A program made the position numbers and the translations under genes. A DNA stretch of 57,029 nucleotides from Patescibacteria group bacterium UBA3533 (GTDB lineage Bacteria; Patescibacteriota; Minisyncoccia; Phycocordibacterales; Phycocordibacteraceae): positions 30,763 to 87,791 of the forward strand of contig DFOU01000006.1 of the NCBI GenBank assembly GCA_002376865.1, in the 5' to 3' direction. The first letter of the stretch is position 1; every line of letters begins with the position of its first letter. The notes beneath the pieces were generated by a model that worked only from the letters and a program-made list of their open reading frames with translations, had not been told where the DNA came from and did no database searches. Of this stretch, positions 1,512 through 54,297 are shown in pieces.

Positions 1512-1533
1512 AGCTGCCTATTTTATAACAAAA

Positions 1534-2052: not shown

Positions 2053-2054
2053 AT

Positions 2055-2210
2055 TTAATCGAGAGTATCTATCACATCAAAAACATCTCCTTCATTATGA
2101 TAAAGGAAATCCTCATCACCACTAGATTGCACAATTACCGTTACCGCAAAAACAGCAAACACTGTAAAGAGAACAATGATGAATAGTTTATTTTTGAAAA
2201 ATTTCATCAT
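2055..2210 (-). CDS. Small single-TM protein (51 aa), hand-called below the ORF-track cutoff
   Basis: Translates as MMKFFKNKLFIIVLFTVFAVFAVTVIVQSSGDEDFLYHNEGDVFDVIDTLD. Its ATG overlaps the tktC stop codon (ATGA). It ends 2 nt before the pilin start codon. Confidence 0.4.
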   Translation of the reverse strand: MMKFFKNKLFIIVLFTVFAVFAVTVIVQSSGDEDFLYHNEGDVFDVIDTLD

Positions 2211-3199
2211 ATACGATCAATTGCTTTACGAATTGCCTGCTCGATATGAGAGACTCCCATACCATAGTGTTCTATCAATTCTTTAGGGTCTCCCGATTGC
2301 CCATACTGATCCTTCACGCCAATAAATTCCATTGGCATTGGTTTTACTTGAGAGAGGTACTCAGCTACGGCAGATCCAACACCTCCTGCAATTTGGTGCT
2401 CCTCTACTGTTACGATCGTTTCTACTTCACTACTTAAATCAAGTAATGCTTTTGTATCAAGAGGCTTCACGGTATGAAGATTGAGTACAATGCTTCCAAT
2501 CCCCTCCTCATCTAATTTCTTTGCTGCAAGGAGTGCGTTATGTAGAAGTCCCCCACTTGCAACAATCCCAACCTTTGGCTTCTCGCTCTCCCATACTCGA
2601 TACGCTTTCCCAATTTCAAATGGCGTGTCTTTTGTCGTAAAAATAGGGGATTTACTTCGCCCAAATCGCAAATACACAGGACCCTTATACTTTGCAGCTG
2701 CAATGGTCGCTTTACGCGCCTCTTCTACATCAGTTGGCACAATAACGGTCATGTTTGGCTGAGCTCGCATAAGAGCAATATCCTCAAGCTGCTGATGTGT
2801 TGCACCATCTGGTCCAACTGAAACTCCAGCGTGCATTCCACATACTTTTACATTGGTATTTTGAAGAGAAATAAGTGACCTTATTTGTTCATTATTCCTC
2901 CCTGGAGAAAATGCGGCGTACGAAGCTATAAAAGGAACCTTTCCAACAAGCGCTATTCCTGCAGCAGTTGCAGCTAAGTTCTGCTCTGCTACTCCCATCT
3001 CTATATATCTATCAGGAAACTTTTCATTAAAAAAGTGTGAGCGTGTACTCTCCATAAGATCAGCACACATCACTACAACACTCTCATCATCTTCCCCTGC
3101 CTCAACTACACCATGCCCATACCCATCACGAGTTGAGCCTTGCTCAAGAGCTTCAGTATTAAACGTGTCTTTACTTAGATGTAGTTTTTTATTAAGCAT
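2207..3199 (-). CDS. Transketolase, C-terminal (pyrimidine-binding) subunit
   Basis: Motifs EMGVAEQN, GPDGATHQ and VPTD are typical of the transketolase Pyr and C-terminal domains. The start is placed at the internal ATG (MLNKK...) that overlaps the end of tktN. The longest ORF extends to 3235. Confidence 0.88.
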   Translation of the reverse strand: MLNKKLHLSKDTFNTEALEQGSTRDGYGHGVVEAGEDDESVVVMCADLMESTRSHFFNEKFPDRYIEMGVAEQNLAATAAGIALVGKVPFIASYAAFSPGRNNEQIRSLISLQNTNVKVCGMHAGVSVGPDGATHQQLEDIALMRAQPNMTVIVPTDVEEARKATIAAAKYKGPVYLRFGRSKSPIFTTKDTPFEIGKAYRVWESEKPKVGIVASGGLLHNALLAAKKLDEEGIGSIVLNLHTVKPLDTKALLDLSSEVETIVTVEEHQIAGGVGSAVAEYLSQVKPMPMEFIGVKDQYGQSGDPKELIEHYGMGVSHIEQAIRKAIDRI

Positions 3200-4049
3200 A
3201 TTCTTCTGTAACTTTACCTCCGCACGTACGTACATTCTTTAGGAAACGCTCTGCCTCTTCTTTGCTTGGCGGCTTTCCGTGCCATGTATAATCACACTCA
3301 ATCTCAGGAACTCCCTTACCTGGAATTGTCTTTGCAATGATCATCGTTGGCTTTTCAGTTTGTGACTTCCCTTCTTCAACTGCATGTACAATTGCCTCAA
3401 TATTATGCCCATCAATTTCAATGACGTGGAAATTAAATGATTTGAATTTGTCCGCAAGTGGCTCAAGCGGCATTACATCCTGCGTCATTCCATTAATTTG
3501 AATATTGTTTCGATCGATAAAACAAATTAATTTATTGAGCTTATTATTCCCTGCAAACATTGCAGCCTCCCACGTATTCCCAGCTTGAAGCTCTCCATCT
3601 GAAAGAAGGCAGTATGTATAGTTTTCTTTTTCATCCATTCTAAGTCCGTATGCGATACCGGATGCTTGTGAGAGCCCAGACCCTAGTGGCCCTGAAGTTG
3701 TCTCAAGACCTGGCAATTTATCTGGCTCAGGGTGCCCTTGAAGGCGTGTGCCAAATTTTCGCAGCGTCATTATTTCCTTTAGAGGGAAGTAGCCTGCGTG
3801 TGCCATTGCCGCATATCGCACAGGAACAATATGTCCATTTGAAAGAATGAGTCTATCGCGCTCTTCCCATTCTGGGTCATCTGCCTTGTGATTTAAAATA
3901 TGAAAATAAAATGCAGAAAAGATATCTGTCATTCCAAGAGGTCCTGCGGTGTGACCGCTCTTAGCCTCAGTTAGCATCTCAATAATGCTCTCGCGTATAT
4001 CGCACGCCTTTGCTTCAACTTCTGCAATTTGTTCTTTTGAAATAGCCAT
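3192..4049 (-). CDS. Transketolase, N-terminal (TPP-binding) subunit
   Basis: Motifs SGHTAGPLG, LSNGH, GSLGSGL-like and LSDGELQAGNTWEA match the TPP-binding half of a split transketolase. Confidence 0.9.
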   Translation of the reverse strand: MAISKEQIAEVEAKACDIRESIIEMLTEAKSGHTAGPLGMTDIFSAFYFHILNHKADDPEWEERDRLILSNGHIVPVRYAAMAHAGYFPLKEIMTLRKFGTRLQGHPEPDKLPGLETTSGPLGSGLSQASGIAYGLRMDEKENYTYCLLSDGELQAGNTWEAAMFAGNNKLNKLICFIDRNNIQINGMTQDVMPLEPLADKFKSFNFHVIEIDGHNIEAIVHAVEEGKSQTEKPTMIIAKTIPGKGVPEIECDYTWHGKPPSKEEAERFLKNVRTCGGKVTEEYA

Positions 4050-4771
4050 TATTCGTAGATACCGTACTGTTCAGATAATTTTTCGAACTCCTTGATAGTA
4101 TGACCTATGTTTGCTGTTTTAAATAGAGCAGAACCCACAGCTAACCTATCTGCTCCTGCTGCAAGAAGAGCCGGTGCATTATCAAGTGATACTCCTCCAT
4201 CTACGTGGATGCACACATCAGGATATCGTTTATGAAAGTTCTTTATTCGATCAACAACACGTGGATCAAACTTTTGCCCCTGCTTTCCAATATCTACAAT
4301 TCCCATAAATTGTATGAAGTCTACATACTGTATATATGGAGCGTACTCAGTAAGCTCCAGGTCTATAGGGACTGCCATTCCAACTGAAAGAAGGTCTGGT
4401 GCAAACTCTTTATCATACCCATACTTTTCTGTAATGAGTTGAATGGTTTTTTTGAAGTCTTTTGTACTCTTAAAATGGATGATTATTCTTGTTGCGCCAA
4501 GATCAATAAAATCTCCAACAACTTCATCAGGATTTGCCACCATAAGGTCTATTCCATAGTGAATAGTATCTGCTTCCGGAAGCACCTCTCCTCTTCTTTT
4601 CATCTCCTCTACAGAAGGACCTGCACCTGTATATGGCCACGTGGTATTCCCAACATAGTTTCCGTCACACACATCAAGCTGCACTTTGCGCACAAAGGGT
4701 TTGATTGTGTTTATCTTCTCACTTAACTCAGCGAAGCTTTTGGGAAGTATTGCTGGTGTTACTAATTGCAT
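4049..4771 (-). CDS. rpe: Ribulose-phosphate 3-epimerase-like protein
   Basis: DVCDGNYV (compare DVMDGHFVPN) and HVDGGV motifs, a TIM-barrel length, and a position among pentose-phosphate genes. The sequence is divergent. Confidence 0.7.
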   Translation of the reverse strand: MQLVTPAILPKSFAELSEKINTIKPFVRKVQLDVCDGNYVGNTTWPYTGAGPSVEEMKRRGEVLPEADTIHYGIDLMVANPDEVVGDFIDLGATRIIIHFKSTKDFKKTIQLITEKYGYDKEFAPDLLSVGMAVPIDLELTEYAPYIQYVDFIQFMGIVDIGKQGQKFDPRVVDRIKNFHKRYPDVCIHVDGGVSLDNAPALLAAGADRLAVGSALFKTANIGHTIKEFEKLSEQYGIYE

Positions 4772-6238: not shown

Positions 6239-9200
6239 CTACTCTACCACGTCCTCCACAGGTGCCTCTGGAGTTTCTACAGCTACTACCGTTACGATTC
6301 GAGAAACTGAAGCTTCATTCCCTGCAATATCAGTTGCTGTATACGTAAGTGTATAAAGCCCTGCATTCTCAGTGTCTACTGCACCAGTTACTACGATATT
6401 TGCAGTTATATCTCCATCAATATCATCTGCTGCAGTCGCTCCCTCATCTGTAAATGAATCCCCTACAGTAATTTCAATTGCAGCTGCTCCAACAAGAGAT
6501 ATTACCGGGGCAATCTCATCAACTGGAGCCTCCTCTACCACCACCTCTTCTTCTACAACAGGAGTTTCCTCCACTACTGCTGGTGTAATTGTAGCTGTTG
6601 TCTCCTCTGTGCTTGTTCCTGTATTTAGTGATGTAAGAGATGCATCAGCTCCTACAACAACAGACCGTGTTGCAGTTGTGAGGTTCCCTGCAGTATCAAG
6701 TACTTTGTATGTAAGCACGTGCTCCCCTGCAACTGATGTATCAAGTGGATGCGTTTCAGCTGAGTATCCATCTACTGAAAGTGTGTAGGTAAGATTCTGA
6801 TCTACATTGTCAGTAATAGTTACTCCTGGCTCTACGTATGCAGTTCCTGTGGCGATATAGTATGGATTTGCTCCGATGATAGTAATAACTGGCTCTTCTG
6901 TATCTACTACGCCAGTATCAGATACTGGAGCTTGATCTCGCTCAGTCTGCACAATGAAGTAATCAAATGTTACGTCTGTATTTTGCACCTGATCTAGTGT
7001 TACGCGGAAGCTTCCATTTGCTTTGTCGGTAATGAACCAACTTCCCACAACAGGTGATGTGAAGGTAATGAAGACCTTTGAGCTTGCCTTAATCTGACTA
7101 TTCTCTACGAGCACCAGCTTATTCCCTGCGTAGATTGTTCCTGTACCTGCTGCTGCCTCCCCATCATTGTCCTTTTGCGCAATAAGCTGCTTGAAGGCAA
7201 GCGCATCAAACTGTGCAAATCCCTTTTCAATAAGTACCCCAAGCTCTGCAAATGCACTCTTGAGTGTTGTTGTACTGAATACTCCTCCTGAACCTGCAAC
7301 CACACCTGATGCCTCAAGTGCTGCAATACGCTCCTCAAGCGTTTCAAGCTTTAGAGCAATCTCCTGCACTGAAGCAAGTGTGAATGTTGCAAGCTTGTAG
7401 ATGTCTACCCCCTTTCCAGATACGCTAAGCACTTCAGAGGGTGCTTCCTCTGCGATAAGACCAAGTCTCAGTGGATTATCATCACTTTCAAAGTTGTATC
7501 GATACTCTGCAATCTGCACCGCCTTAAGCTTACTTAGAATGTCATCCTTTCGAGCCTCATCGAGGTATGCAATTCCCTTCTTCTCTTCTCGTGTTGAGAT
7601 ATTTACAAATGATGTAGCTGCAGCATCTCCAAGCACATGGAGTTTGTATGCTGGAGTTGTTGTTCCGATTCCGATGTTTCCAAGAGCGTCGATTGCTATT
7701 GCTCCATTTGCTCCGATTCGTGACTCAAGCTTCTCATCAAGCTCTATAATTCCTTGTAGCAATCGTGTAGTAAACGCGGTGTCATATGAGACACGTTTGT
7801 ACCCACGATCATCTTCCTGCACCATCTCTGGGAATACTGCCTCTACTTCCTGTGCAATAAGTCCATAGTTTGTTCCAGCTTGTCCATTTAGCCACTCAAA
7901 CTCATCGTTTCGCCACTCGAAAGTAACTCCTCGAAGCTGTGCAAGCCTATCGAGCACTGGATCAAGATCTTGAATATTTTTCTTTAGACGTTCATCTGAA
8001 ACACAAGTTCCTGTAAGAGTGGTGTTGTCAGCATCACGTACACAACCAGTTGTACCTGTTCCAATCTCAATGTCATCCTCAACATCAAGCTTAATTGAGT
8101 CTGGACTCGCAGTACCAATACCTACGTTTCCTGTTCCAAGAACAGTCAGAAGATTCCCTCCTCCATCTGCAACCTGGAATACTTCATCATTTACCCCAAG
8201 ATTATTTGTTGCAGTAAATAGAAATGCCTCATCTGTAGTTCCGCCTGCACTTCGTGCTGCATTAAACCCAACATCAAAACCTTGGAAAGTTGCATTGTTA
8301 TTGACAGTTCCAAATGTCTGTAGGTCAGAAGAGTCAAGAGTTACAAGTGAGCGATTTGCTCCACCTGTATCTTCAAACTGAAGTGATTGATTATTTGTTA
8401 GAAGAATATTTCCTCCTGATACCTCAAGTTTTGTTTCTGGAACAGTTTCTCCGATACCTACGTTTCCAGAGGAATCAATAGTTAGCCGCTCAGTAGAATT
8501 CGTCCACAATGAAATATCATTGTCAGCGTGATTGTATGAAAGCCGACCTCTTGTTGCATTGTCGCTGTCTCCAAAGAAGAGGTGCCCAACCGCAGTATTT
8601 GGCGTAAGGATACTAATACCTGCAGCCGCGCTGTTTTCAATAATCAAATCGTCTGCACTATTATTTGGAGATACTTGTCCTGAACCAGCACTTGCAACGT
8701 GCACTGTTCCTAGAGGAGAAGTAGTACCAATACCTACATTTCCTGCATCATTTACATACAGCTCAGGGTCTCCACTTATTGTTCCTCCCCAGATTCCAAT
8801 ACCAGGATTTGTTCCATCTCCATACGCTCCTACACCTCCTGCTGAGGCAGTAGTTAGATAATCAAAGCCAATTACTGTTCCTGACCCAGCAACTCCAAGG
8901 TTCTGTGTTCCTGCGTCAAGAGTAAAGATTTCTTGAATTACACCGTTGCTTCCTCCCTTTGAAACTGTAAGTAGTGATGCTGGACTTGAAGTACCGATAC
9001 CTACGTTTCCACTTGCATCAATACGCACATGCTCTGCCCCACCTTCGCTAAATGTATATTCTGAACCTGCACTTATAGCAAAGTTAGTAAGTCCTCCTGC
9101 AAAATCAATAGAGAAGTCTGATGCTACATCAGAGCGTTGGAGTTTAAATATGTCTCCTGCTCCACCAATTTCTGCATGCAAGAGAGCGTCTGGAGAAGTA

Positions 9201-12200
9201 GTACCAACCCCTACATTTCCTGATGAATCAATAGAGAGCGCCGTATTTGTAATACCTCCCGAATATGAATTTGAGGTACCAAAGGCAAGGTTTGACCCTG
9301 ATCCATCAAACATTGCTCCAATACGTACACTCGGTGCCGAATAGTCTGCAGTGTACATTCCCTCGATAAGAGAAATATAATTTCCAGCACTATAGTCTGT
9401 TTGCGTTACAAGCACCCCTTCTCCAAATGTTGCATTTTCAAATGTTGCACCAAGCCTGTTTGCCCCCTCAATTTCAAGCCTGGCATTTGGTGTAGTGTCT
9501 CCAACTCCTATATTTCCTTCTTCTCCATCAATATAAAGTCGTTCGGTAGTGCTTGCATAGAATATAAGGTCATTAGTTACGTGACTATAGGTAATTAAAC
9601 CAGCAGAAGCATGTTTTTCATCTGCAAATGCAATGGCTCCAAGTTCTGCACCAGAGTTTGGAGATGCAATGGTAAATCCTGCATATCCATTGTTATTTCC
9701 TCGAACTGTAAGGTGATTGTATGCAGTATTTGCAGCTTCAGTAAATGTTCCTGTTGGCGTGTACTCAACAAGCAGTCGCTGTGTTGCTGATGGAGAATCA
9801 CTTCCAATTCCTACGTTTCCTGCATCATCAATACGCACGCGTTCTGTAAGAGTGTTTGCACCATCAGCAGTTGTAAGGAATACGATGCGTCCAGGAGTGT
9901 CACCAGCCCCAGGAGTACCATCTACCTGAAATCGAATTCCTGCAGCAACACTATCGTAATCAACACCATCATCAACAGAGGCAAAGAAGTTACCTATTGT
10001 ATCGCCATCTTGCACAATGCTGTTTGAACCAACAGTAGTGCCGCGCGATTTGAAAAAGGCAATATTTGTTCCTCCAGCATTATTACTCCACCTTCCAAGC
10101 GTAGCACCAGAATCAGAATATTCTGTCCCCAATACCTGAACACCAAAATCTGCATATGCTATTGTTTGAGCGTAATCATGCCCCACGATAAGAGAATTAC
10201 CATCTGAAATACTTGTTGAGCCATTTATGTTTAGAACATTATTTGGCGTTGTAGTACCAATTCCTACGTTTCCTGAATCATCAATTACAAGACGGTACTC
10301 ATTTACTGCAGAGTCAGAGCTGTCATTACTTTGGTAGATATAGAAGAGGTTATTACCCGCCGAGTGAGTGTCTCCAAGGTTTCCAACAGCCCACTTGTAT
10401 ACATCTTCATTTTTGAAATCGAATTGAGCATACGAAGTATCGCTACCCACATCAATAGAAACACCTGTTGCCGTATCCTTATACACGTGTAGGAGTGATT
10501 GTGGTGATGAAGTACCAATACCTACGTTGCTCGTCGTCGCCAGATATAACTGATTACTTGTTGAATCTGCTGCTAAGTACAGTGGACGAATAACGCCAGT
10601 ACCGCCAGCACTAGTACGAATTTGGTATGCCTGCTCACTTGCTTGGTAACCAACGCCTAGGGATTCCAGATTTGTATTATCAGCAGGGGAACCTACACCA
10701 AATAGCGAGATTTTATTATTATCGGTACCATCACCATCATTGGTGAACATCCACAAACTTGAGTGGGTACCAGCTTGTTGACTCTGCACTACAAAGCGGC
10801 CATAAGTCGTAGCACCAATATTGGCTGTGTTACCTAAGCGATAGGTTTGGTAACTTGGGTCACCAAACTCAATGTCGCCAGTCACAGTTAACTTGGATGT
10901 TGGCGTTGAAGTACCAATACCCACATACCCAGCAGAGTCTACATACAGCGTGTTACTTGGTGTAGCTGGCTCAATCTGAAACGGTGTATTTCCTGATGCG
11001 TCTTCAATATAGAAGACTGATGAACCTGTAAGTCCAATATCGTATTGGTATGATGAACCTCGAGCAATACGAATATCTCCTCCTGCTGACGGCCCCTCAA
11101 ACTGAGCAATAATAGTTGAAGCAGAAACTACATCCAGCTGTGCATCAGGAGTACTGTCGTTAATTCCAACATTTCCGGTACCAAGAACAGTCAATCGCTC
11201 TTCTGGTGTAGCACCAGTCCAGAGTGAGATATTACGAGAGTTACTTGCAGCCTCAAACTCAAGTCCTGTGTCATTTGCCCTAATTTCTGTATTGTATCCA
11301 GAACTTATGTCTTCTACATCAAGACGTAGTCGTCCAGTAGCACCCCCTGCAGTGTTTGTAATAATAATTCCCTTTCCATCAAGGTTGGTAAGTGAGTGTG
11401 CATTTTCTCCAACTGCAACCCTCCCTGCTGTTGCATCTACATAAAATGCTTGAGCATTTCCTGCTTCTCCCACATTAAAGTCTCCATCTACATCGAGAAG
11501 GTATCCTGGAGATGTTGTTCCAATACCTACGTTTCCATCACCAGTGATAATAAACTTCGTATCAGAATCAGTTGGAGTTGCTGAACCATTAGACCTAGCT
11601 TTAAATAACACATCTGTTGAATCAGCATCACCATCTACAATCAACCCAACTGTTGCTCCACCATTACCCGCCAAGAAGTGCCCTGCTGCATCTCCAGATA
11701 TTGTGCCTCCTTGAACTACAAACTTGTGGACAGGTGTTGTGGTACCAATTCCCACACTTCCTCCCTGACTATTAAGCACCAAGTCTCTATTAAAGGTGCC
11801 TCCTTGATCCACTGCTTCAATATATCCATAATTCTCATCTGTAGCGTACCCAATCAATAGACGCTCTGTATCGTCAGTATTTCCTCGAATTGAGAACTGT
11901 GATTCAACATTTGTTGTAAATCGTGACGCGGCAAGGTCTTTCTGTACGATAAGCCCTGTCCCCGTTGTCGCGGTGTCAACAATATCAAGCTTTGCACCTG
12001 GACCTGCCTCACCGATTCCTACGTTTCCAGAAGCATCAATAGACCATCCAAGATTTCCATCATTATATGCTTGCAAATTGGGGCTTACGTAACGCAATCC
12101 AGTATTTCCACTTGTATGCTTTAGTAAATAACCGCTCTTTGCTGAATTTATAGTGTTAGCAAAGTAAGCTCCTCCCTCAACAGCAAACAAAGAAACTGGA

Positions 12201-15200
12201 GAGCTAGTACCAATACCTACGTTTCCAGAATTATCTACGATAAATATGTCTCCATCATTTGATGTATTTGAAGAAATACCAAAGTATCCATCTTCGTGAT
12301 TATCTGAAACTTCAAGTGTAAAGTCTGGAGTGTTATCTCCATTTACTCCGACCGTTCCATCACGAGTAACAGTAAAGAGGTTTGCAATAAACGCTCCAAT
12401 ATCATCTGCTGACTGCACATTAAAGCTACTATCTGTATCTCCAGTACCTCCAGTGTAGTTAAATCGCATTAACTTATACCCTGCTGAGGCTCCTGATGTG
12501 TCCTCAAGAATAAATGCTGGGTTGTTCTCTGCAATATGAACCTTTCTTCGAGGTGTGGTTGTACCAAATCCAACATTTCCAGAGCCATCCACCCGTAGCC
12601 GCTCCGTATCATCAGTTCGTACAATTACAGCCCCACTTGCAGAAGTATTAATAAGTTCAAGCGCACTTTGTCTATTTGCGGTACTTAAACTAGAACCATT
12701 GTATTGGATACGGGCAACATTACTTAGGTCCTCTTGGAATCGAATCTGACTAAAGCTTGTTTCGTCTGTAATATCAAGATCAATTCTTGCCTCTGTAGAA
12801 TCAGCAATCACAAGGTTTGATCCTGGCGTCGTAGTACCAATACCTACATTTCCACCACTAAGGAATGAATATCCATTTCCATCAAGCTTAATAGCATCAG
12901 CACCAGCATTTGTTTGAATCTCAAGCACACCAGCAGAATCTGATGAGTCTTGGTACAGCTGGATCAATTGATTTGTATTTGCTGAATTCTCAAGATAAAT
13001 ACCTCCGGTAATACCTCCACCACTTGCTTTCACTGCAAGTTGCGCATTTGGACTCTCTGTTCCAATACCAAACTCCCCCGCACTATCAAGGGTCACTACA
13101 TTACTTCCCCCGATATACCACCCAAATCCAGCAGTCTCTTGGTTATCAAGATTAAACTGCCCATCTGAAGCAAGAGACAATAGTGTTCCATCTGAAGAAG
13201 TTTCTCCATTACTTCTTGTAAACTGAATCTTCACCGCATCGCTTCCTCCAAGATGTAGAAGGTTTTGTGGGTCAGTTATTCCGATACCTATGTTTCCGCC
13301 ATCCTTTGCAGTAAGGACACTTGCGCCACCTGCACGAAGGAACAAATCATCTCCTGCTGCACGAAGTCCAACGACCCCAGAGCTGGTAGTGGTGTTGTCT
13401 ACCAATGAAAGATCTGCATTTGCATCACTAGACTCAAGTGTCAGAACATTATTTGAAGTACCTGCATCAACATGAAGTTTTGTAGTCGGACTTGTAGTAC
13501 CAATACCCACATTTCCAGAACTTAGAATACGTACAAGCTCGGTACTACCATTATTAAATACAAACTGCCCTCCTGAGCCATCACTTCGTGCAGTTAAAGC
13601 AAAGGTATTACCCGCTTGTGTAATCTGCCCTGTCTCTCCTCCATCATCTACAAACTCAAGGTACCCTTGTGTTCCATAGTCTCCTGCTGTGATGGTTCCA
13701 ATTACTTGAAGGGCAGTGTCTGGACTTGTGGTACCAATACCTACGTCCCCACTACTTTCTATAGTAAGTAGTGCAGAGCCATCTTCTTGGAATTGGTGCG
13801 CCACAGTTGCACCTCCAACCATGTTGTACACAGCATTGCTTGCACCCGCACCAATAGATAGATATGAGGGGTCATCTGTTCTTCCAAGGCGTAGCTGGTC
13901 TGCCGCAGAATCCCGTGCAACATGAAGGGCACTTTCTGGAGAAGTAGTACCAATACCTACATTTCCACTACTATCTATCCTTACCTGCTCTGATGCATTT
14001 GTATACAAAGACAAAGAGTCACTGGCATTAGCATAGAGAATGCGTCCCATCCAATCACTACTATCATCTCCAAATATCAACTGAGCCTCCGATGCTGCAT
14101 TGGTAATGATTGATATTTCAGCACCTCCTGAAGTATTGACGACTTCTATTTCATGATCCGGACTTGTCGTACCAATACCCAAACTTCCTCCATTGTTAAT
14201 GTAGTTATCGACACCAGAGGCTCCAGAGAATAATATTTTTGATGAACTACCATCTCGCAAGAGCAGCTCACCCGCAGTACCATTTCTATCAAGAATACCA
14301 ATTGCTGTTGAGCCATTCACAATTGATAGTCCTCTTGCATCATCTACAAATAAATTGAGAAGGCCTCCGGTACCAAACTGAGCACGCTGTGTACCACCAA
14401 GCGCAATGTCCAACTTATCTCCAGCACTAGTATAGATACCTGTATTAGGATCTGATGCAAAGCTTACTGATGGCAAGCTTGCGGAACCATCTTTTCCAAG
14501 ATACTGAGCACTTGTAAAGATATGATTGTCATTATAAAGACCTAGCTGATCACTTGAATTAAACCGTATAAGGTTTAGTGCTGCTCCTGCAGTAGTTACT
14601 CCCTGCAATGAGTAGTTATTTGTTCCAAGCTTTATATTTCCACCCTGAACAACAAACTTCTGATCCGGTGAGGTGCTTCCAACTCCTACATTTCCAGACG
14701 CATCTACAACAAAATCAAAATCTGTAAGTTGACTATCCTGCCCAATAAAGAACTTGCCCAAACCATCCCCTCCGTCGCGCACAAATCCAATAGCACCTAG
14801 CTGAGAATTTGTAACCCCCGTGTCAGATATTTGAAATTCAATTGCAGAACCAAAATCGTCTGCTGCATCTACAGAACTATTCGCTACAAATTCTGTAACA
14901 GGCCTAGGCGCATTACTCGTCCCTGTCCCTCTTGAAAACCTTGAAATGGCACCTACACCTGTACCTTCAAAATTGATACCTGTGCTACCTGTTACAGAAA
15001 GATTGTAATTTGGACTTGTAGTACCAATACCTACGTTTCCAGAGTCATCAATCGTCACCCGTTCAGTACCTGCAGTATAAAGCCGCAAATAATCCTCATC
15101 TGAGCTCTCCTCTGCTGTTACGTAGGTATCCTGATCAATATCAATTACCCCACCAAGTCCTAACCAATTGCTTCCGTTATACCCTTCATACTGTGTGGTA

Positions 15201-18200
15201 TTGGTGTTGTACCTGATCTGTCCCGTAAGTTCAGTAGAAGGACGCTGCGCAGTGGTACCAACTGGGATACGAATGGCATCAGTTGCATAGATATCAACTG
15301 TTGTTGCGGGAGTGGTAGTACCAATACCCACATTCCCAGAGCCATCTACCACAAGCGCCGCCCCTGTTGCCCCTGAATTTGGACTTGGATTTATGTAGAA
15401 GACATCTCCCCCTGCTGCATCAGTAGTTGCGGTAACTCCAAGCTCATACTGATCTGTAGAGCCTTGTGCAAACTGAAGGAATGGATAGTTTGCAACTCCT
15501 GCTGATTCAATGCGAACCCCCGAGTTTGCACTTGAAACTACATCAAGATGTGTGGCGCTTCCTGACCCCTCAATTACAAGTGCACTTGCAGGAGTGGTTG
15601 TACCAATACCAAGCCGATTTGTACTATCATTCCAGAAGAAATTACTATTATCTTGCGCGAGCGCTCCACTTGAGTTTGCAAACACGACTGACCCCTCTGT
15701 AAATCCAGCAGGAGCAATGGTTCCATACAGAGAGCCATCTACCTCAAGGTCCCCACTAATGTACGCACTATTATAATAATCGGCTGCAGCAATAGAGCTT
15801 GGTGTCCCTGTACCTACAGTTAACCGTACAGATGGCGAAGAACTTCCAAGTCCCAGATATCCATTTATGTCAAAGTTCGCAAGTTCAAGTCCGTTATTGT
15901 CTTGCACGGTAAAGAGGTTTCCAGTTTGTGAAGATGCAGCACGCACAGCAAGGGTACTTGTTCCTGTTGACCCATTATCATTTTGAATGAAAATGTTCTG
16001 GTTGAAGTCAAATCGATCCTCTGACGCATCCCATCCAATTACAGCATTCGGTACTACTACTCCTCGATAGAATACGAGAGATGCATCTTCTCCATCTGAA
16101 GTCGCATTGTCTGAGTTAATAGAAAATGAAGCATTGTTTGTTCCTGCAATTGAAGTGCTTGCTGCAGAAAGGTTATTTATAGTTGCACTATCAAAGTACG
16201 CATCGTCCCAATAGTATGCGGGAGATCCAAGGTCATATGTTGCATTTGATGTAGGGATAATTGCCACACTTGAATCAACCTGCCCTGAAGAGAACTGGAA
16301 CTGTGTTGTTTCGTTATATCCAATATGAAGTGGCAACCCACTTGAAGAGTACACACGGAATGAGTCGCCTATGTATCCATTTAGAAGTCCCACATTGCTT
16401 CCTCCTGCAACAAGCCGCACTCGTGGCTCAGTTGTAGCTCTGAAAATAGCAGGCTTACTTGCAGACACGGTCACATCAAGTGGGGACTCTGGAGTTGTGT
16501 CATTAATTCCAACATATCCATTTGCAAGCACTGTAAGGCCAGATGCTTGTGAACCTCCACTTGCTGCAGAGAAGGTTCCTGTAGTTGTTGCATTAGTAGA
16601 AGTAAGTTCTGGGAATGTAGACGCAACAGATGTAGATGTAGCAGTAAAGTACTCAGCAACCGCTTGCCCTACTACTGAGAGCTTTGCATATGGAGATGTT
16701 GTTCCAATACCTACACTTCCATCCTCCTGTACACGGAAGAGCTCTGTACCACCTGCAAGAGAAGCACTATCTTTCGCAACAATAAATGCTGAGGTTGTCT
16801 CGTCATTGTTTGAATCAATATTGAAATAAAAACTTCCGGGAGCATTTACACCTGCACGCAACGCAGAATCCCGAGGAATATATGCACTGTTAGAAGAAAA
16901 TCCAATAAAGTTACCACTTGAAAGTGTTGCAATGTTTCCATCAACTCCAAGCGCTTGCCCTGGACTGTTTGTGTTTATACCAACCTGCGCATTTGTGGCA
17001 TCTACAAACAGAGCGTTTGAGCTTCCTGCTTCTCCTACACGGAAGTCTCCATCTACATCAAGAAGATATCCTGGAGTTGTTGTACCGATTCCAAGACGAT
17101 CATTCCCATTATCAAAAAATAAGTTGCTATTATCTTCGACCACAAGACCTCCTGTTCCAATAAATGGAATTGATCCTGCAGTTAGGCTGCTGATTGTAAG
17201 ATTTGTTGTCGTTGCATTAGTAGTTGTGGCATTTGTTGCAGTTAGATTTGTAAGTGTCGCAGTAATTGCCTCTAATGCTGTTGTGTAGAAGTTTGTTGAG
17301 GTTGCGTTTGTAACTACAGAGTTGTTACTAAAGAAGTTGGTTGAAGTTGCATTTGTTGTAGATGCATTGTTTGCAAAAAGATTTGTGCTTGTTGCGTTAG
17401 TTGTTGACGCATTTATTGCAAAGAAGTTTGTTGTTGTTGCAGATGCAAGAGTTGCTGTTGTTCCTGTAAGTGGCCCTGTGAGCGTTGTAGTAGCAAGAGT
17501 GGTTGTCCCTGAGGCAATAAGTGTCGGAATTGTAAGCGGCCCTGTGAGCGTTGTTGTGGCAGCATTCAACGTATCAAATGTTCCTGTATTTGCATTCACA
17601 CTTGATCCACGGAATGTTGACCCAGTAATTTCACTGTTTCGAATGATTCCGCTTAAGAATTCTCCATCACGAATGATTGTTCCGCTGATATCCTCAATCT
17701 TGTTCACCCACTGAATGGTTTCAATATTCTGAACAATCTGATTTCGGTTAACTGCAGTTAGTTTCTGGATCTCAGCTGAAAGCGCTGCGTGAAGTGCAGT
17801 AATACTTGAATCTACGTAAAGCTTATTTACGTCAGTGCTTGCAAAGAAATTCTGAGTAACATTTCGAGGAGCAATGTACACAGGAGCTGCTGGCTCATCT
17901 TCCTTAATGACAACATTGGTTTGAGCAGGCCCCGGATTTACAAGCAGTACCGGATCTTTCTTTCGACCAAAGATTCGATCGAAAATATCTCGTACGCCAC
18001 CTGCAACTCCTCCGATTACATTTGCTTGAGCTTCCTCAACTTTCTCTGCTGTATTTGTTGCAAGAGGAGATTTTACGCCTGCAAGTTTTGATCCAATATT
18101 CTCTGGAACTGCCATTACAGTTTCTACTGCTGGAACAAAAACATTTGCTGCAATACGCTCTCCAGCAAACTTAATCATTCCCATAACTTTTTCTGTAGAA

Positions 18201-19486
18201 ACATCTAGACCTGAATTTGCACCTGCAAGGATTGTTGTAGGTAAATCAAACCGAGCATACGCATACCCTGTTCCAATCGTATCTCCTGTTGATTCAATCG
18301 CATCCTTATACGTATCTGTAAGTGCATACGTGCTATCAACGAAGCTGTAAATGAAATCTACATACCCGCCAATAATTGCTCTTCCAAGTTTTGGAGAATT
18401 CTCTCGTACAGAACTTCCAATCTTAATGTTTGCCTCAGGAATTGATTGTGCTGAAGTGAGAATAGCTCCTCCTGTGTTATACGGCACAGAAGCAAGAGTG
18501 TTTGCAAGCACAAAACTTCCATCAACAAATCCGTAGACTAGCTCCGCCTGTGCTTTTGGAAGCTCTTGAGCAAGAACAGCAAACGCCCCTAGACCTTCTT
18601 CATATGAGTTCAAAATGTTGGCGCTTGCTGCCTGTGCAATATTCTGCACAGCAAGAGCATTTGAAAGGCTTTCCTTGCCAAGATATTTAACAAACCCCGT
18701 GTACGCATCAACTGACCCATGAGCTGCTACGACAAGCCCTTCTCCAAGCGCCTTATATCCATTCCAAATATCTGTAGAGCTTGGAAGCATCAAACTTCTT
18801 CCTGGAACATACGTAGAAGCGAAACTTTTTTGAACACCAGTGTACTTAAAGCGATTTCCAAAAGACTCTACTTCTGCAAATCCTGTTGCAAAAATATTAT
18901 TGGCCTCAAACTTTATTTCATTAGAAACTTTATTTTGTGCAACTACATAGTTGACCCGAGCCAGTTCTGGGTGACGCTCTGATCGAGCAAGTACTCGATG
19001 CACATCACTTGCCCTCTCATGCACAGCGGAAATCAATTTAAATGGAAGAGAAGAAATTCCTGTTGCCCCAGCCAAAGAGTATCCTCCAAAAACAATTAGA
19101 ACAGTTAGGGCAAGTGCTGCTGCATTTTCAAATGGAAGCTTATCGAAACTTTTTGCAAAAATATTCTTAAAGTCATCTTGAGCCTTAGGGGCTTGAACTT
19201 TCTTATATTCAATTTTTCTTTCCTTAGAGAGAGATTCTCTTTTGATTTCTTTTACGGCTTCTTTAATATCAAAAAATTCAAGTAGAGCTTTTTTCTCAAC
19301 AACCCAAGAGCGTCCAATCCTACTTGCAGGAATTTTTCCTTCTCGAGCAAGTCGACCTACGTAGTCAGAAGTACGCCCGACAATGGACGAAGCTTCTTTT
19401 GTTGAAATAAATTTTTTATGCTCGGCAGACATAGTTCGGAAGAACGATTTCCCTATTATTTTAACCAATATTTTCAATATCGACAC
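6239..19486 (-). CDS. Giant (4,415 aa) membrane-anchored fibre protein: N-terminal HTH, one TM helix, T/N-rich repeats, about 33 GNVGIGTTSP tail-fibre-like repeats, 2 peptidase-S74-like domains and 2 Ig-like (DUF5011-like) domains
   Basis: One uninterrupted 13,248-nt ORF. The annotated start at 19486 is GTG. An in-frame ATG at 19432 (MSAEHKKFISTKEA...) is at least as plausible. Domain calls are listed as separate sub-features. Confidence 0.85.
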   Translation of the reverse strand: MSILKILVKIIGKSFFRTMSAEHKKFISTKEASSIVGRTSDYVGRLAREGKIPASRIGRSWVVEKKALLEFFDIKEAVKEIKRESLSKERKIEYKKVQAPKAQDDFKNIFAKSFDKLPFENAAALALTVLIVFGGYSLAGATGISSLPFKLISAVHERASDVHRVLARSERHPELARVNYVVAQNKVSNEIKFEANNIFATGFAEVESFGNRFKYTGVQKSFASTYVPGRSLMLPSSTDIWNGYKALGEGLVVAAHGSVDAYTGFVKYLGKESLSNALAVQNIAQAASANILNSYEEGLGAFAVLAQELPKAQAELVYGFVDGSFVLANTLASVPYNTGGAILTSAQSIPEANIKIGSSVRENSPKLGRAIIGGYVDFIYSFVDSTYALTDTYKDAIESTGDTIGTGYAYARFDLPTTILAGANSGLDVSTEKVMGMIKFAGERIAANVFVPAVETVMAVPENIGSKLAGVKSPLATNTAEKVEEAQANVIGGVAGGVRDIFDRIFGRKKDPVLLVNPGPAQTNVVIKEDEPAAPVYIAPRNVTQNFFASTDVNKLYVDSSITALHAALSAEIQKLTAVNRNQIVQNIETIQWVNKIEDISGTIIRDGEFLSGIIRNSEITGSTFRGSSVNANTGTFDTLNAATTTLTGPLTIPTLIASGTTTLATTTLTGPLTGTTATLASATTTNFFAINASTTNATSTNLFANNASTTNATSTNFFSNNSVVTNATSTNFYTTALEAITATLTNLTATNATTTNATTTNLTISSLTAGSIPFIGTGGLVVEDNSNLFFDNGNDRLGIGTTTPGYLLDVDGDFRVGEAGSSNALFVDATNAQVGINTNSPGQALGVDGNIATLSSGNFIGFSSNSAYIPRDSALRAGVNAPGSFYFNIDSNNDETTSAFIVAKDSASLAGGTELFRVQEDGSVGIGTTSPYAKLSVVGQAVAEYFTATSTSVASTFPELTSTNATTTGTFSAASGGSQASGLTVLANGYVGINDTTPESPLDVTVSASKPAIFRATTEPRVRLVAGGSNVGLLNGYIGDSFRVYSSSGLPLHIGYNETTQFQFSSGQVDSSVAIIPTSNATYDLGSPAYYWDDAYFDSATINNLSAASTSIAGTNNASFSINSDNATSDGEDASLVFYRGVVVPNAVIGWDASEDRFDFNQNIFIQNDNGSTGTSTLAVRAASSQTGNLFTVQDNNGLELANFDINGYLGLGSSSPSVRLTVGTGTPSSIAAADYYNSAYISGDLEVDGSLYGTIAPAGFTEGSVVFANSSGALAQDNSNFFWNDSTNRLGIGTTTPASALVIEGSGSATHLDVVSSANSGVRIESAGVANYPFLQFAQGSTDQYELGVTATTDAAGGDVFYINPSPNSGATGAALVVDGSGNVGIGTTTPATTVDIYATDAIRIPVGTTAQRPSTELTGQIRYNTNTTQYEGYNGSNWLGLGGVIDIDQDTYVTAEESSDEDYLRLYTAGTERVTIDDSGNVGIGTTSPNYNLSVTGSTGINFEGTGVGAISRFSRGTGTSNAPRPVTEFVANSSVDAADDFGSAIEFQISDTGVTNSQLGAIGFVRDGGDGLGKFFIGQDSQLTDFDFVVDASGNVGVGSTSPDQKFVVQGGNIKLGTNNYSLQGVTTAGAALNLIRFNSSDQLGLYNDNHIFTSAQYLGKDGSASLPSVSFASDPNTGIYTSAGDKLDIALGGTQRAQFGTGGLLNLFVDDARGLSIVNGSTAIGILDRNGTAGELLLRDGSSSKILFSGASGVDNYINNGGSLGIGTTSPDHEIEVVNTSGGAEISIITNAASEAQLIFGDDSSDWMGRILYANASDSLSLYTNASEQVRIDSSGNVGIGTTSPESALHVARDSAADQLRLGRTDDPSYLSIGAGASNAVYNMVGGATVAHQFQEDGSALLTIESSGDVGIGTTSPDTALQVIGTITAGDYGTQGYLEFVDDGGETGQITQAGNTFALTARSDGSGGQFVFNNGSTELVRILSSGNVGIGTTSPTTKLHVDAGTSNNVLTLESSDANADLSLVDNTTTSSGVVGLRAAGDDLFLRAGGASVLTAKDGGNIGIGITDPQNLLHLGGSDAVKIQFTRSNGETSSDGTLLSLASDGQFNLDNQETAGFGWYIGGSNVVTLDSAGEFGIGTESPNAQLAVKASGGGITGGIYLENSANTNQLIQLYQDSSDSAGVLEIQTNAGADAIKLDGNGYSFLSGGNVGIGTTTPGSNLVIADSTEARIDLDITDETSFSQIRFQEDLSNVARIQYNGSSLSTANRQSALELINTSASGAVIVRTDDTERLRVDGSGNVGFGTTTPRRKVHIAENNPAFILEDTSGASAGYKLMRFNYTGGTGDTDSSFNVQSADDIGAFIANLFTVTRDGTVGVNGDNTPDFTLEVSDNHEDGYFGISSNTSNDGDIFIVDNSGNVGIGTSSPVSLFAVEGGAYFANTINSAKSGYLLKHTSGNTGLRYVSPNLQAYNDGNLGWSIDASGNVGIGEAGPGAKLDIVDTATTGTGLIVQKDLAASRFTTNVESQFSIRGNTDDTERLLIGYATDENYGYIEAVDQGGTFNRDLVLNSQGGSVGIGTTTPVHKFVVQGGTISGDAAGHFLAGNGGATVGLIVDGDADSTDVLFKARSNGSATPTDSDTKFIITGDGNVGIGTTSPGYLLDVDGDFNVGEAGNAQAFYVDATAGRVAVGENAHSLTNLDGKGIIITNTAGGATGRLRLDVEDISSGYNTEIRANDTGLEFEAASNSRNISLWTGATPEERLTVLGTGNVGINDSTPDAQLDVVSASTIIAQFEGPSAGGDIRIARGSSYQYDIGLTGSSVFYIEDASGNTPFQIEPATPSNTLYVDSAGYVGIGTSTPTSKLTVTGDIEFGDPSYQTYRLGNTANIGATTYGRFVVQSQQAGTHSSLWMFTNDGDGTDNNKISLFGVGSPADNTNLESLGVGYQASEQAYQIRTSAGGTGVIRPLYLAADSTSNQLYLATTSNVGIGTSSPQSLLHVYKDTATGVSIDVGSDTSYAQFDFKNEDVYKWAVGNLGDTHSAGNNLFYIYQSNDSSDSAVNEYRLVIDDSGNVGIGTTTPNNVLNINGSTSISDGNSLIVGHDYAQTIAYADFGVQVLGTEYSDSGATLGRWSNNAGGTNIAFFKSRGTTVGSNSIVQDGDTIGNFFASVDDGVDYDSVAAGIRFQVDGTPGAGDTPGRIVFLTTADGANTLTERVRIDDAGNVGIGSDSPSATQRLLVEYTPTGTFTEAANTAYNHLTVRGNNNGYAGFTIASPNSGAELGAIAFADEKHASAGLITYSHVTNDLIFYASTTERLYIDGEEGNIGVGDTTPNARLEIEGANRLGATFENATFGEGVLVTQTDYSAGNYISLIEGMYTADYSAPSVRIGAMFDGSGSNLAFGTSNSYSGGITNTALSIDSSGNVGVGTTSPDALLHAEIGGAGDIFKLQRSDVASDFSIDFAGGLTNFAISAGSEYTFSEGGAEHVRIDASGNVGIGTSSPASLLTVSKGGSNGVIQEIFTLDAGTQNLGVAGSGTVIGFDYLTTASAGGVGAYGDGTNPGIGIWGGTISGDPELYVNDAGNVGIGTTSPLGTVHVASAGSGQVSPNNSADDLIIENSAAAGISILTPNTAVGHLFFGDSDNATRGRLSYNHADNDISLWTNSTERLTIDSSGNVGIGETVPETKLEVSGGNILLTNNQSLQFEDTGGANRSLVTLDSSDLQTFGTVNNNATFQGFDVGFNAARSAGGTTDEAFLFTATNNLGVNDEVFQVADGGGNLLTVLGTGNVGIGTASPDSIKLDVEDDIEIGTGTTGCVRDADNTTLTGTCVSDERLKKNIQDLDPVLDRLAQLRGVTFEWRNDEFEWLNGQAGTNYGLIAQEVEAVFPEMVQEDDRGYKRVSYDTAFTTRLLQGIIELDEKLESRIGANGAIAIDALGNIGIGTTTPAYKLHVLGDAAATSFVNISTREEKKGIAYLDEARKDDILSKLKAVQIAEYRYNFESDDNPLRLGLIAEEAPSEVLSVSGKGVDIYKLATFTLASVQEIALKLETLEERIAALEASGVVAGSGGVFSTTTLKSAFAELGVLIEKGFAQFDALAFKQLIAQKDNDGEAAAGTGTIYAGNKLVLVENSQIKASSKVFITFTSPVVGSWFITDKANGSFRVTLDQVQNTDVTFDYFIVQTERDQAPVSDTGVVDTEEPVITIIGANPYYIATGTAYVEPGVTITDNVDQNLTYTLSVDGYSAETHPLDTSVAGEHVLTYKVLDTAGNLTTATRSVVVGADASLTSLNTGTSTEETTATITPAVVEETPVVEEEVVVEEAPVDEIAPVISLVGAAAIEITVGDSFTDEGATAADDIDGDITANIVVTGAVDTENAGLYTLTYTATDIAGNEASVSRIVTVVAVETPEAPVEDVVE
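6290..6514 (-). other. Ig-like domain 2 (DUF5011 / bacterial surface Ig-like) of the giant protein
   Basis: PVISLVGAAAIEITVGDSFTDEGATAADDIDGDITANIVVTGAVDTENAGLYTLTYTATDIAGNEASVSRIVTV matches the remembered consensus (P.I.l.G ... dpGatA.D..dGdlt ... G.Y.vtY.vtD.aGN). Confidence 0.7.
6653..6898 (-). other. Ig-like domain 1 (DUF5011-like) of the giant protein
   Basis: EEPVITIIGANPYYIATGTAYVEPGVTITDNVDQNLTYTLSVDG...HVLTYKVLDTAGNLTTATRSVVV. Confidence 0.65.
7313..7612 (-). other. Second, degenerate peptidase-S74-like (intramolecular chaperone) domain followed by a coiled-coil tail
   Basis: ISTREEKKGIAYLD...LKAVQIAEYRYNFESDDNPLRLGLIAEEAPSEVL...YKLATFTLASVQEIALKLETLEERIAALE parallels domain 1. The SDxRxKxNI entry motif is degraded to STREEKKGI. 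Confidence 0.55.
7724..7999 (-). other. Peptidase S74 / endosialidase-type intramolecular chaperone domain (canonical)
   Basis: SDERLKKNIQDL...LRGVTFEWRNDE...NYGLIAQEVEAVFPEMV...YKRVSYDTAFTTRLLQGIIELDEKLE. The SDxRxKxNI entry, the G(L/F)IAQEVE core and the C-terminal helix are the hallmarks I recall for PF13884. Confidence 0.8.
8000..17098 (-). repeat. Array of about 32 irregularly spaced (about 60-110 aa) repeats anchored on the G-N-V-G-I-G-T-T-S/T-P motif. One more copy lies between the two S74 domains.
   Basis: On the plus strand this shows up as recurring gtaccaatacctacgtttcc-type 20-mers, for example near 8110, 8455, 8730, 8990, 9205, 10255, 12210 and 15020. I counted 33 motif copies in the translation. 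Confidence 0.85.
17177..17596 (-). repeat. Thr/Asn-rich short-repeat segment (TTTLTGPL x2, and TNATSTNFF / NASTTNATSTN units)
   Basis: Residues about 631-770: ...TTTLTGPLTIPTLIASGTTTLATTTLTGPLTGTTATLASATTTNFFAINASTTNATSTNLFANNASTTNATSTNFFSNNSVVTNATSTNFYTT...TNATTTNATTTNLT. Confidence 0.8.
19055..19126 (-). other. Single predicted transmembrane helix of the giant protein
   Basis: NAAALALTVLIVFGGYSLAGATGI is preceded by a Lys-rich segment. The positive-inside rule then places the HTH in the cytoplasm. Confidence 0.65.
19271..19411 (-). other. N-terminal helix-turn-helix (excisionase/MerR-like, HTH_17-type) domain of the giant protein
   Basis: FISTKEASSIVGRTSDYVGRLAREGKIPASRIGRSWVVEKKALLEFF fits the pattern (hydrophobic)-T-x-x-E-A-A-x-x-L-G-V-S-x-x-T-(V/L)-x-x-(W/L)-x-x-x-G-x-(I/L)-P-x-x-x-(I/V)-G-R-x-(W/I/Y)-x-(F/I). 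Confidence 0.7.
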
Positions 19487-53907: not shown

Positions 53908-53910
53908 TTG

Positions 53911-53984
53911 TGCGCGTACTAGGATTCGAACCTAGGACCTTTCGAGTATCAGTCGAATGCTCTAGCCAACTGAGCTATACGCGC
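53911..53984 (-). tRNA. tRNA-Ile (anticodon GAU)
   Basis: Hand-folded cloverleaf. Acceptor GCGCGTA/TACGCGC; D stem GCTC/GAGC; anticodon stem TTCGA/TCGAA with loop CTGATAC; T arm CTAGG-TTCGAAT-CCTAG; discriminator A. CCA is not encoded. The 3' end lies 3 nt before the murC ATG. Confidence 0.93.
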
Positions 53985-54272: not shown

Positions 54273-54297
54273 CTCGCCTCACACTATGTGAGGCGAG
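54273..54297 (+). terminator. 11-bp-stem hairpin whose 3-nt loop is the murD stop codon; T-rich tail on the plus strand only
   Basis: CTCGCCTCACA-cta-TGTGAGGCGAG followed by CTTCTTTTAT on the plus strand. On the minus strand it is followed by GATTCAATG. Confidence 0.55.

Follow-up and report, generated by a model that had tools for sequence, protein, structure and literature searches.

The window analysed here, a stretch of 57,029 nucleotides from Patescibacteria group bacterium UBA3533 (contig DFOU01000006.1, positions 30,763 to 87,791), carries a giant fibre gene whose C-terminal part is the assembly cassette of a chromosomal trimeric fibre. This fibre is of phage-tail-fibre type, resembles the MAT fibres of Bdellovibrio and has a putative membrane anchor. 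The cassette contains two complete S74 domains, i.e. intramolecular chaperone (IMC) domains, which are located 134 residues apart and each have their own upstream beta-helix rung and predicted C-terminal helix. The genomes of the Patescibacteria, or candidate phyla radiation (CPR), measure about 0.6 Mb, and the lifestyle of these bacteria is one of attachment to other microbes; to our knowledge, the way in which they hold their hosts is largely unknown. The gene corresponds to one uninterrupted open reading frame (ORF; 6239-19486, minus strand) of 4,415 codons with a GTG start. The first ATG is codon 19, and the protein counted from this Met has a mass of 455.8 kDa. Positions 6242-7999 encode exactly the residues 3830 to 4415, the codon of Ser3830 being 7997-7999 and the final sense codon 6242-6244. 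A preliminary description of this stretch had proposed two internal S74 domains followed by some 390 residues of further domains, with about 585 residues from the first catalytic Ser to the end of the protein. The Pfam matches and the domain map agree with this layout, with ~350-400 residues of folded domains behind the two S74 domains, and the computed distances to the C-terminus are 586 residues (62.4 kDa) from Ser3830 and 452 residues from Ser3964. The features of the C-terminal part, all on the minus strand, are the following:

8000..8119, minus strand: stalk block IGTASPDSIKLDVEDDIEIGTGTTGCVRDADNTTLTGTCV, residues 3790-3829, directly before copy 1 (conserved in relatives)
7700..7999, minus strand: S74/IMC copy 1, residues 3830-3929 (Pfam, PDB, PHROG and AlphaFold2/Foldseek matches)
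7598..7699, minus strand: one beta-helix rung IAIDALGNIGIGTTTPAYKLHVLGDAAATSFVNI, residues 3930-3963, stalk of copy 2 (8ojn alignment)
7301..7597, minus strand: S74/IMC copy 2, residues 3964-4062 (Pfam, PHROG, hhalign and tblastn matches)
6902..7300, minus strand: "tail" module, residues 4063-4195, a short helix and a beta-sandwich (residues ~4113-4180) of the tailspike/K1-lyase C-terminal type (AlphaFold2 and Foldseek)
6656..6901, minus strand: Ig-like domain 1 (PF16403), residues 4196-4277 (Pfam, 50.1 bits alone)
6515..6655, minus strand: acidic T/E/V-rich linker, residues 4278-4324 (read from the sequence; unconserved in relatives)
6287..6514, minus strand: Ig-like domain 2 (PF16403), residues 4325-4400 (Pfam; PDB 2kpn, E 4.5e-11, and 4hmc)
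6242-6286, minus strand: acidic end of 15 residues after Ig-like domain 2

Copy 1 is a canonical S74 domain, and the position anticipated for its Ser (about 3830) is exact. The Pfam model PF13884, whose gathering cut-off is 22 bits, recognizes residues 3830-3889 over the model positions 1-57 with 69.1 bits (E 3.9e-19). The entry motif SDERLK contains the dyad residues Ser3830 (codon 7997-7999) and Lys3835 (codon 7982-7984); it is followed by the aromatic pair F-E-W and by a terminal helix at residues ~3903-3926. Sequence matches were obtained in the PDB (6f45, 7dc3) and among the tail-fibre families of PHROG (E 1.7e-25). An alignment of 163 unique copy-1-type domains from relatives (identity to the window copy: median 39%, minimum 24%) reveals that the Ser is conserved in 161 and the Lys in all 163 of them. 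The Tyr pair, replaced by F-E-W in the window copy, was left unscored in this set.

The second copy begins with the entry motif STREEK, in which Ser3964 (codon 7595-7597) and Lys3969 (codon 7580-7582) are found. It contains the pair Y3995-R-Y3997 and ends with a helix at residues ~4029-4060. Its match with PF13884 covers residues 3965-4015 and model positions 2-49, with a score of 24.3 bits (E 3.9e-5). Since this match starts at model position 2, S3964 falls on the column of the catalytic Ser and K3969 on that of the Lys, so that both dyads (S3830/K3835 and S3964/K3969) are in register with the model positions 1 and 6. Both copies, aligned to PF13884 as the preliminary description had recommended, are above the cut-off and have the catalytic Ser and Lys. 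The marginal Pfam score of copy 2 understates its relationship. The tail-fibre families of PHROG (including phrog_18983) match it over ~100 residues at the extreme end of the profiles (E 1.4e-15). When profiles built from relatives were compared by hhalign, copy 1 and copy 2 were aligned over 87 columns, including the terminal helix (probability of 97.6%, E 2.9e-12). A phmmer search of the PDB with copy 2 alone found no IMC, the sensitivity of a single sequence being too low. The nearest phage relatives detected by tblastn are the terminal IMCs of the fibres of the Bacillus phages Stahl and Flapjack, where the "SD" is absent but the S-x4-K is kept (SLRELK, SSESYK). These fibres end 10-15 residues past the domain and the PHROG matches lie ~10-20 positions from the profile ends, in agreement with the extreme C-terminal position that had been attributed to the phage S74 domains.

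The existence of a second S74-like copy was correctly proposed at the outset, whereas the description of its entry motif as degraded does not stand. Copy 2 might be seen as a duplicate that has decayed and been kept as a coiled-coil spacer, with copy 1 as the sole active protease-chaperone; its 24.3 bits, the replacement of the Asp following the Ser by Thr and the shifted Arg go in this direction. Nevertheless, among 219 unique copy-2-type domains (identity to the window copy: median 56%, minimum 29%), the Ser and the Lys are conserved in 219/219, and the two Tyr of the Y-x-Y motif in 219/219 and 218/219. The four catalytic positions belong to the only 16 columns of this alignment that are conserved at 95% or more. 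The homology to copy 1 spans the entire domain, the phage terminal IMCs that copy 2 matches at E 1e-15 likewise lack the "SD", the Arg is non-essential in the eukaryotic transcription factor MyRF, and copy 2 is the universal copy in the family whereas copy 1 is optional. Decay of copy 2 is consequently improbable in our opinion. Because the Ser, the Lys and the Y-x-Y are essentially invariant in the relatives, the family motif FVN[IT]ST[RK]xxK is a conserved variant of the entry motif, the dyad being intact, and copy 2 belongs to a distinct IMC lineage.

Another element of the preliminary description was a coiled-coil-like tail behind the second copy. The sequence LKLETLEERIAALE is present (residues 4045-4058), but it is part of the terminal helix of copy 2, which corresponds to the trimerizing helix of MyRF (PMC8326128), and not a separate element. 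The additional GIGTTTP repeat noted between the copies was recovered at residues 3939-3945, in the inter-copy rung (...GNIGIGTTTPAYKLHVLGD...); this rung aligns with the Bdellovibrio protein Bd3182 (PDB 8ojn) and is highly conserved across all relatives. An AlphaFold2 monomer model of residues 3790-4195, with a pLDDT of 83.6, displays two similar alpha/beta units, each closed by a long helix. The best PDB matches found by Foldseek with this model are the ICA domain of MyRF (7dc3, E 7e-5) and the IMC of the endosialidase endoNF (3gw6). From these sequence and structure comparisons, copy 1 and copy 2 are both bona fide S74/IMC domains.

The domains downstream of copy 2 correspond to those expected, namely a beta-rich segment, an acidic V/E/T linker (residues 4278-4324) and two Ig domains of the DUF5011 type. 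In the AlphaFold2 model, the beta-rich segment is a sandwich (residues ~4113-4180, pLDDT >90). Its matches in the PDB, with a Foldseek probability of ~1, are 7eea (Pam1), 9k4a (K64-1 S2-4), 4urr (Sf6) and 6cl6, and the fold also resembles that of the R2 pyocin fibre and of H-type lectins. Among the 21 matches obtained in BFVD at E<=1e-3, many are named K1 capsule-specific polysaccharide lyase C-terminal domain. The "tail" segment has no sequence-family match in Pfam, NCBIfam or PHROGs, and the sandwich was identified by fold comparison alone. The family PF16403 (Bact_surface_Ig-like, DUF5011) is recognized above its threshold in the two stretches 4197-4277 and 4325-4400, with a total of 122 bits.

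The distribution of the cassette was determined by scanning one genome per GTDB species with a profile of the copy-2 cassette (flank limit of 10 kb) and by searching 1.84 billion cluster representatives exhaustively with phmmer. The entries recovered by the homologous-protein search do not exceed ~710 residues; the full-length architectures were therefore taken from the GTDB loci and the cluster representatives. The GTDB scan gave 139 relatives, all named Patescibacteria or unclassified bacterium metagenome-assembled genome and including Paceibacteria, Kaiser-, Wolfe-, Taylor-, Niyogi- and Nomurabacteria, among others. The phmmer search recovered 1,186 proteins at E<=1e-3, of which 398 reach E<=1e-10; proteins of 7,275 and 7,920 residues are among those recovered. 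The cassette ORFs of the GTDB loci are giant, up to 3,800 residues within the flank limit (651-3,661 residues for the complete ones), and full-length relatives of 3,100-7,900 residues exist. The common order is a helix-turn-helix domain (HTH_17) and a transmembrane helix at the N-terminus, then an optional copy-1-type S74 domain, a rung, the copy-2-type S74 domain, the tail, and one or two Ig domains. Copy 2 is never terminal: in the 71 representatives of at least 1,000 residues, it is followed by 137-411 residues (median 256). A copy-1-type domain is present in 40 of the 69 loci with enough upstream sequence, where it lies 119-225 residues (mostly 130-145) before the Ser of copy 2.

Comparison of the window protein with the loci L002 and L003 ranks the regions by their conservation. 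The rung, copy 2 and the tail are identical at 83-86%, the Ig domains at 69-79% and the shaft at only 26-48%, while copy 1 is identical at 36% in L002 and absent from L003. More distant relatives give the same ranking. Copy 2 together with everything downstream is common to the whole family and forms its best-conserved unit, and copy 1 is a frequent, optional second unit carried by a variable shaft. The stalk block and copy 1 are also found as a block in other Patescibacteria proteins with quite different C-terminal extensions (P0013, P0015, P0016, P0018, P0020-24, P0027; 70-80% identity), with the consensus PDSIKLDVEDDIEIGTGTTGCVRDADNTTLxGxCVSDERLKKNI. As copy 2 is never terminal and the copy-1 blocks carry varied C-terminal extensions, an S74 domain with further protein behind it is the rule in these Patescibacteria. 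The departure from the textbook layout is real in that the terminal position of the phage domains is not observed here. It is nonetheless the norm of a Patescibacteria family and not an oddity of one gene, and for the internal position MyRF is a precedent.

Variations of this architecture were observed. In relatives that lack copy 1, such as the closed UBA2103 genome, another beta domain takes its place. Such a different beta domain precedes the copy-2 rung in L003 (residues ~2770-2960), L054 (residues ~2550-2770), L019, L044, L075, L076 and L060, with the motif ...VPVALAGRVPVKV..EGG.I.VGD..., and it argues for module swapping at this joint; in L054 it matches the Pfam families XM1_gp53_minor_capsid and Phage_cement_2. 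Conversely, the "polyfibres" L065 and P0181 (5,473 residues) contain four copy-1-type S74 domains, spaced by ~650-1,200 residues, in addition to copy 2. All of the copy-1-type domains have the motif SDxRLK with the Ser and the Lys retained. The modules between the S74 domains of P0181 share ~46% identity and each restarts with T/N/A-rich repeats, as at the beginning of the window shaft. The ORF of L065 (2,984 residues) ends at the contig edge.

A further variation is the presence of the cassette as a separate gene, the protein being split exactly between the shaft with its copy-1 S74 domain and the rung with the copy-2 cassette (L083, 994-7080 and 10001-11527; L013, 3554-5572; P0007, P0012, P0059, P0067). 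The upstream shaft gene, of 2,028 residues, ends just after the copy-1 S74 domain with an intein N-fragment (...NIVAQ/CVTGDTRL...), and the separate cassette gene starts with a Met and an intein C-fragment of 75-95 residues (...GNDIFAHN/T). These loci look like cases in which the intein of an exported fibre protein is naturally split or was disrupted by an insertion. Between the two genes lie a PIN/DUF433 pair, a PD-(D/E)XK protein and small ORFs. No intein is found in the window gene.

The comparison with characterized systems delimits what is particular to this protein. The phage IMCs (MEROPS S74, PF13884: K1F endoNF, T5 pb1, S16 gp37 and Bacillus phage fibres) represent the same domain as both window copies, placed after a triple beta-helix rung, with a Ser-x4-Lys dyad and with a long C-terminal helix that is predicted for the window copies. 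In phages, however, this domain is single and terminal, whereas in the window protein two of them stand in tandem, 586 and 452 residues from their Ser to the end of the chain, with 350 residues of conserved folded domains behind them. Moreover, the carrier is a chromosomal bacterial protein of 4,415 residues with a putative membrane anchor. The mosaic adhesive trimer (MAT) fibres of Bdellovibrio bacteriovorus (Bd3182, 8ojn; PMC10769870) are likewise cellular, trimeric, beta-helical surface fibres with S74 domains and exchangeable modules. They are defined by the capping loop V-G-G/N-pi-x-x-P-x-x-x-L, a motif found in ~30 rungs of the window protein, in addition to the 8ojn match. They differ by their size (~1,000 residues) and by their N-terminus, which consists of a signal peptide and a conserved domain, beta-rich and ~130 residues long. 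This N-terminus is probably not shared by the window protein, which begins with HTH_17 and a putative transmembrane helix. In addition, MATs with S74 end in this domain and those with other tips (beta-sandwich, TNF-like, lectin) lack it, whereas the window chain combines S74 with a sandwich/Ig tip, the S74 domain is duplicated and the protein is 4-7 times longer.

The best structural match is the ICA domain of MyRF/MrfA (7dc3; PMC8326128), which is likewise an S74 domain in internal position, followed by a large C-terminal part that is functional, and shares with copy 2 the Y-R-Y motif near the scissile site; an internal S74 domain of this kind is thus already known from eukaryotes. MyRF is a transcription factor of the endoplasmic reticulum membrane, with its transmembrane helix downstream of the ICA domain, and its cleavage frees an N-terminal DNA-binding trimer. 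In the window protein the sole hydrophobic stretch is at residues 122-140. The topology would be the opposite, with an N-terminal anchor and extracytoplasmic S74 domains, and cleavage would free the C-terminal part. As for the C-terminal sandwich of tailspikes (Pam1, Sf6, K64-1 S2-4, R2 pyocin fibre, H-type lectins), the resemblance of residues ~4113-4180 is at the level of the fold only, and phages use the sandwich instead of a terminal IMC while the window protein has it after the IMC. In the limited paper collection searched, no paper was found that links S74/IMC with Patescibacteria or describes a tandem or internal bacterial S74. In giant HTH-anchored proteins, the association of tandem S74 domains with a conserved sandwich/Ig cassette located after the IMC appears undescribed.

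Concerning the function of the cassette, we lean, with a little better than even confidence, towards a model where both domains would trimerize the exported chains, nucleate their folding and then cleave themselves off. The chain would be exported from the N-terminal signal anchor in the N-to-C direction, and the C-terminal IMC helices of three chains would form trimeric coiled coils that set the register and nucleate the C-to-N folding of the triple beta-helix. Each Ser-Lys dyad would then cut the bond preceding its Ser, between V3829 and S3830 and between I3963 and S3964. If both sites are cut, the products would be an anchored fibre of 393 kDa, with a conserved Cys-containing stalk as its new tip, a middle piece of 14.9 kDa (IMC 1 and one rung) and a C-terminal piece of 47.6 kDa (IMC 2 with the sandwich and both Ig domains). 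The latter would be either an enlarged pro-domain that is discarded or a trimer that is set free. We favour autoproteolysis retained at both sites because the Ser, the Lys and the Y-x-Y are kept and because the nearest phage IMCs keep S-x4-K; between cleavage and trimerization nodes, the alternatives given in the preliminary description, the sequence evidence favours retained catalysis. Furthermore, a conserved downstream chaperone behind a variable upstream fibre is the classic pattern of IMC systems, which is encountered here.

Several observations weigh against this model. The invariance of the Ser and Lys could in principle be structural. The cassette is strongly conserved and has folds of binding type (tailspike-tip sandwich, Ig), which is odd for a part to be discarded. 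The multi-S74 proteins L065 and P0181 would be chopped up if every node were cut, leaving only their first module bound to the cell. Ligation by an intein exactly at the joint between copy 1 and the cassette suggests that the covalent linkage matters at least transiently, for instance for export, and the structure prediction is that of a monomer. The main rival is an explanation in which the S74 domains are permanent nodes of trimerization and registration, either uncut or cut but held, and the sandwich and Ig domains form a distal adhesin tip. In its favour, the lectin-, tailspike-tip- and Ig-like folds occupy the best-conserved part of the protein, an S74 domain every ~650-1,200 residues in the polyfibres would make sense as a periodic folding nucleus of one long fibre, and ligating a cassette downstream of copy 1 would cease to be pointless, as it would be if copy 1 were cut again at once. 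We nevertheless consider this explanation less likely. For a distal tip that binds receptors, the highest variability of all regions would be expected, yet the cassette is the most conserved. The catalytic Ser and Lys are retained throughout the copy-2 lineage; in the copy-1 lineage the Lys is retained in all and the Ser in nearly all (161/163). The S74 domains of endoNF and T5 pb1, with their intact dyad, are self-cleaving. The other S74 domains with an intact dyad that have been assayed also cleave themselves: Bd3182, a bacterial S74 fibre, at the Ser of SDxxxK unless this Ser is mutated (PMC10769870), and MyRF directly before the Ser (PMC8326128). In MyRF, the cleavage is abolished by S587A, K592A and the double mutation Y615A/Y617A and not by R590A, the Arg of SDxRxK being non-essential, and trimerization is driven by the C-terminal helix of the ICA domain (PMC8326128).

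A further alternative, which we propose only tentatively, is that giant secreted polyproteins have in the S74 domains their built-in sites of processing. The single N-terminal anchor would export the entire chain, the nodes would trimerize it and it would then be cut into separate trimeric products. The universally conserved 47.6-kDa piece would be freed outside the cell as a trimer that has its own function, for example as an adhesin, a lectin or an effector acting on the host surface. The multi-S74 relatives would in that case yield several fibres per gene, and the split inteins would join a standard cassette gene to different shafts. Permanent nodes and a polyprotein exported whole before its processing agree equally with the multi-S74 and split-intein facts.

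The gene shows that Patescibacteria build very long appendages of phage-fibre type, in which a standard cassette at the C-terminus has one or two S74 chaperone domains, whose self-processing is presumed. Should the domains cut, they would provide the first bacterial case of an S74 processing that releases a large conserved folded module and not a bare chaperone; if they do not, it would be the first S74 lineage with an intact dyad in a purely structural role. In both cases, the sequence of the cassette is a convenient marker of these giant fibres, the genes of which are usually fragmented in metagenome assemblies.

The remainder of the protein, upstream of the stalk, is made up of three features:

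19271..19408, minus strand: HTH_17/excisionase-like domain, residues 27-72 (Pfam PF12728, 36.6 bits; weak match of TIGR01764)
19067..19123, minus strand: single hydrophobic stretch AAALALTVLIVFGGYSLAG, residues 122-140 (read by eye from the sequence)
8120..19066, minus strand: fibre shaft with ~30 rungs G-I/V-G-T-T-x-P-x-x-x-L at residues ~800-3790 (regular-expression count of 32)

The stretch AAALALTVLIVFGGYSLAG is a putative signal-anchor transmembrane helix and the HTH_17 domain is presumably cytoplasmic. From the order of these elements, the N-terminus would be in the cytoplasm, the long trimeric fibre outside and the S74 cassette distal. A release of the HTH domain by S74 cleavage, as in MyRF, was rejected: the transmembrane helix separates the HTH domain from the S74 domains, and cleavage is therefore unable to free the former. 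A shaft rung matches the beta-helix of Bd3182 (8ojn) at E 5.7e-5, and the rung motif GIGTTxPxxxL equals the capping-loop consensus of the MATs. The positions 19067-19432 (minus strand) encode the HTH_17/excisionase-like domain followed by one hydrophobic helix in place of a signal peptide, and this N-terminus is kept in the complete relatives L003, L004, L021, L023, L028, L031, L046, L054, L057 and L083. Within the shaft, the T/N/A/S-rich repeats (ATSTNFF.NNASTTN...) at 16000-18000 form the sole 2-kb block with a positive GC skew (+0.03, against approximately -0.15 elsewhere); this block contains a 45-bp tandem repeat at 17346-17441.

The giant fibre gene is flanked by genes for GAPDH, Rpe (ribulose-phosphate epimerase), a split transketolase, GatB, Obg and SecA, and no phage genes were found among its flanks in the window. 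The nearest public sequence of the cassette is in a contig of UBA2103 (locus L001, 98% identity), and in the closed UBA2103 chromosome of 578,798 bp the cassette is 83% identical. Owing to these housekeeping flanks and to the UBA2103 matches, the gene is a cellular gene of an ultrasmall, UBA2103-like bacterium of the Patescibacteria; its 13,248 nucleotides amount to ~2.3% of the genome size of the closed relative. Every recognizable fold of the protein has phage tail-fibre or tailspike relatives, which could suggest a prophage tail-fibre gene, or else an assembly chimera or a pseudogene fusion. Such an origin is very improbable. Besides the flanks and the 98% identical copy in UBA2103, the ORF is uninterrupted and the architecture with the N-terminal HTH_17 and transmembrane anchor recurs in dozens of independent genomes, including the closed chromosome. 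A scan of IMG/VR with two peptide patterns gave no viral relative of the cassette, although distant viral relatives could escape these patterns.

Further out, the window contains a large surface-glycan cluster, MurC/D-like ligases, a tRNA-Ile gene and the 3' part of a 16S rRNA gene. The 16S rRNA 3' end (56293-57029, minus strand) and the tRNA-Ile-GAT (53910-53984, minus strand) are separated by an ORF for a MurD-like ligase of 423 residues (54284-55555), and a MurC-like ORF is found after the tRNA; such a content is unusual for a 16S-tRNA spacer. The glycan cluster extends over ~20 kb (26568-47197), all on one strand. It encodes a Wzy-type ligase/polymerase with tetratricopeptide repeats, a flippase, a NeuB-type nonulosonic-acid synthase, a CMP-sugar cytidylyltransferase, a HAD phosphatase, two FkbM methyltransferases, a sulfotransferase and several GT4 glycosyltransferases. 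Finally, a type IV pilin-like protein with an N-terminal methylation motif (1534-2052) and a VirD4/TraG-type coupling protein (48352-49980) represent surface systems implicated in the lifestyle of Patescibacteria.

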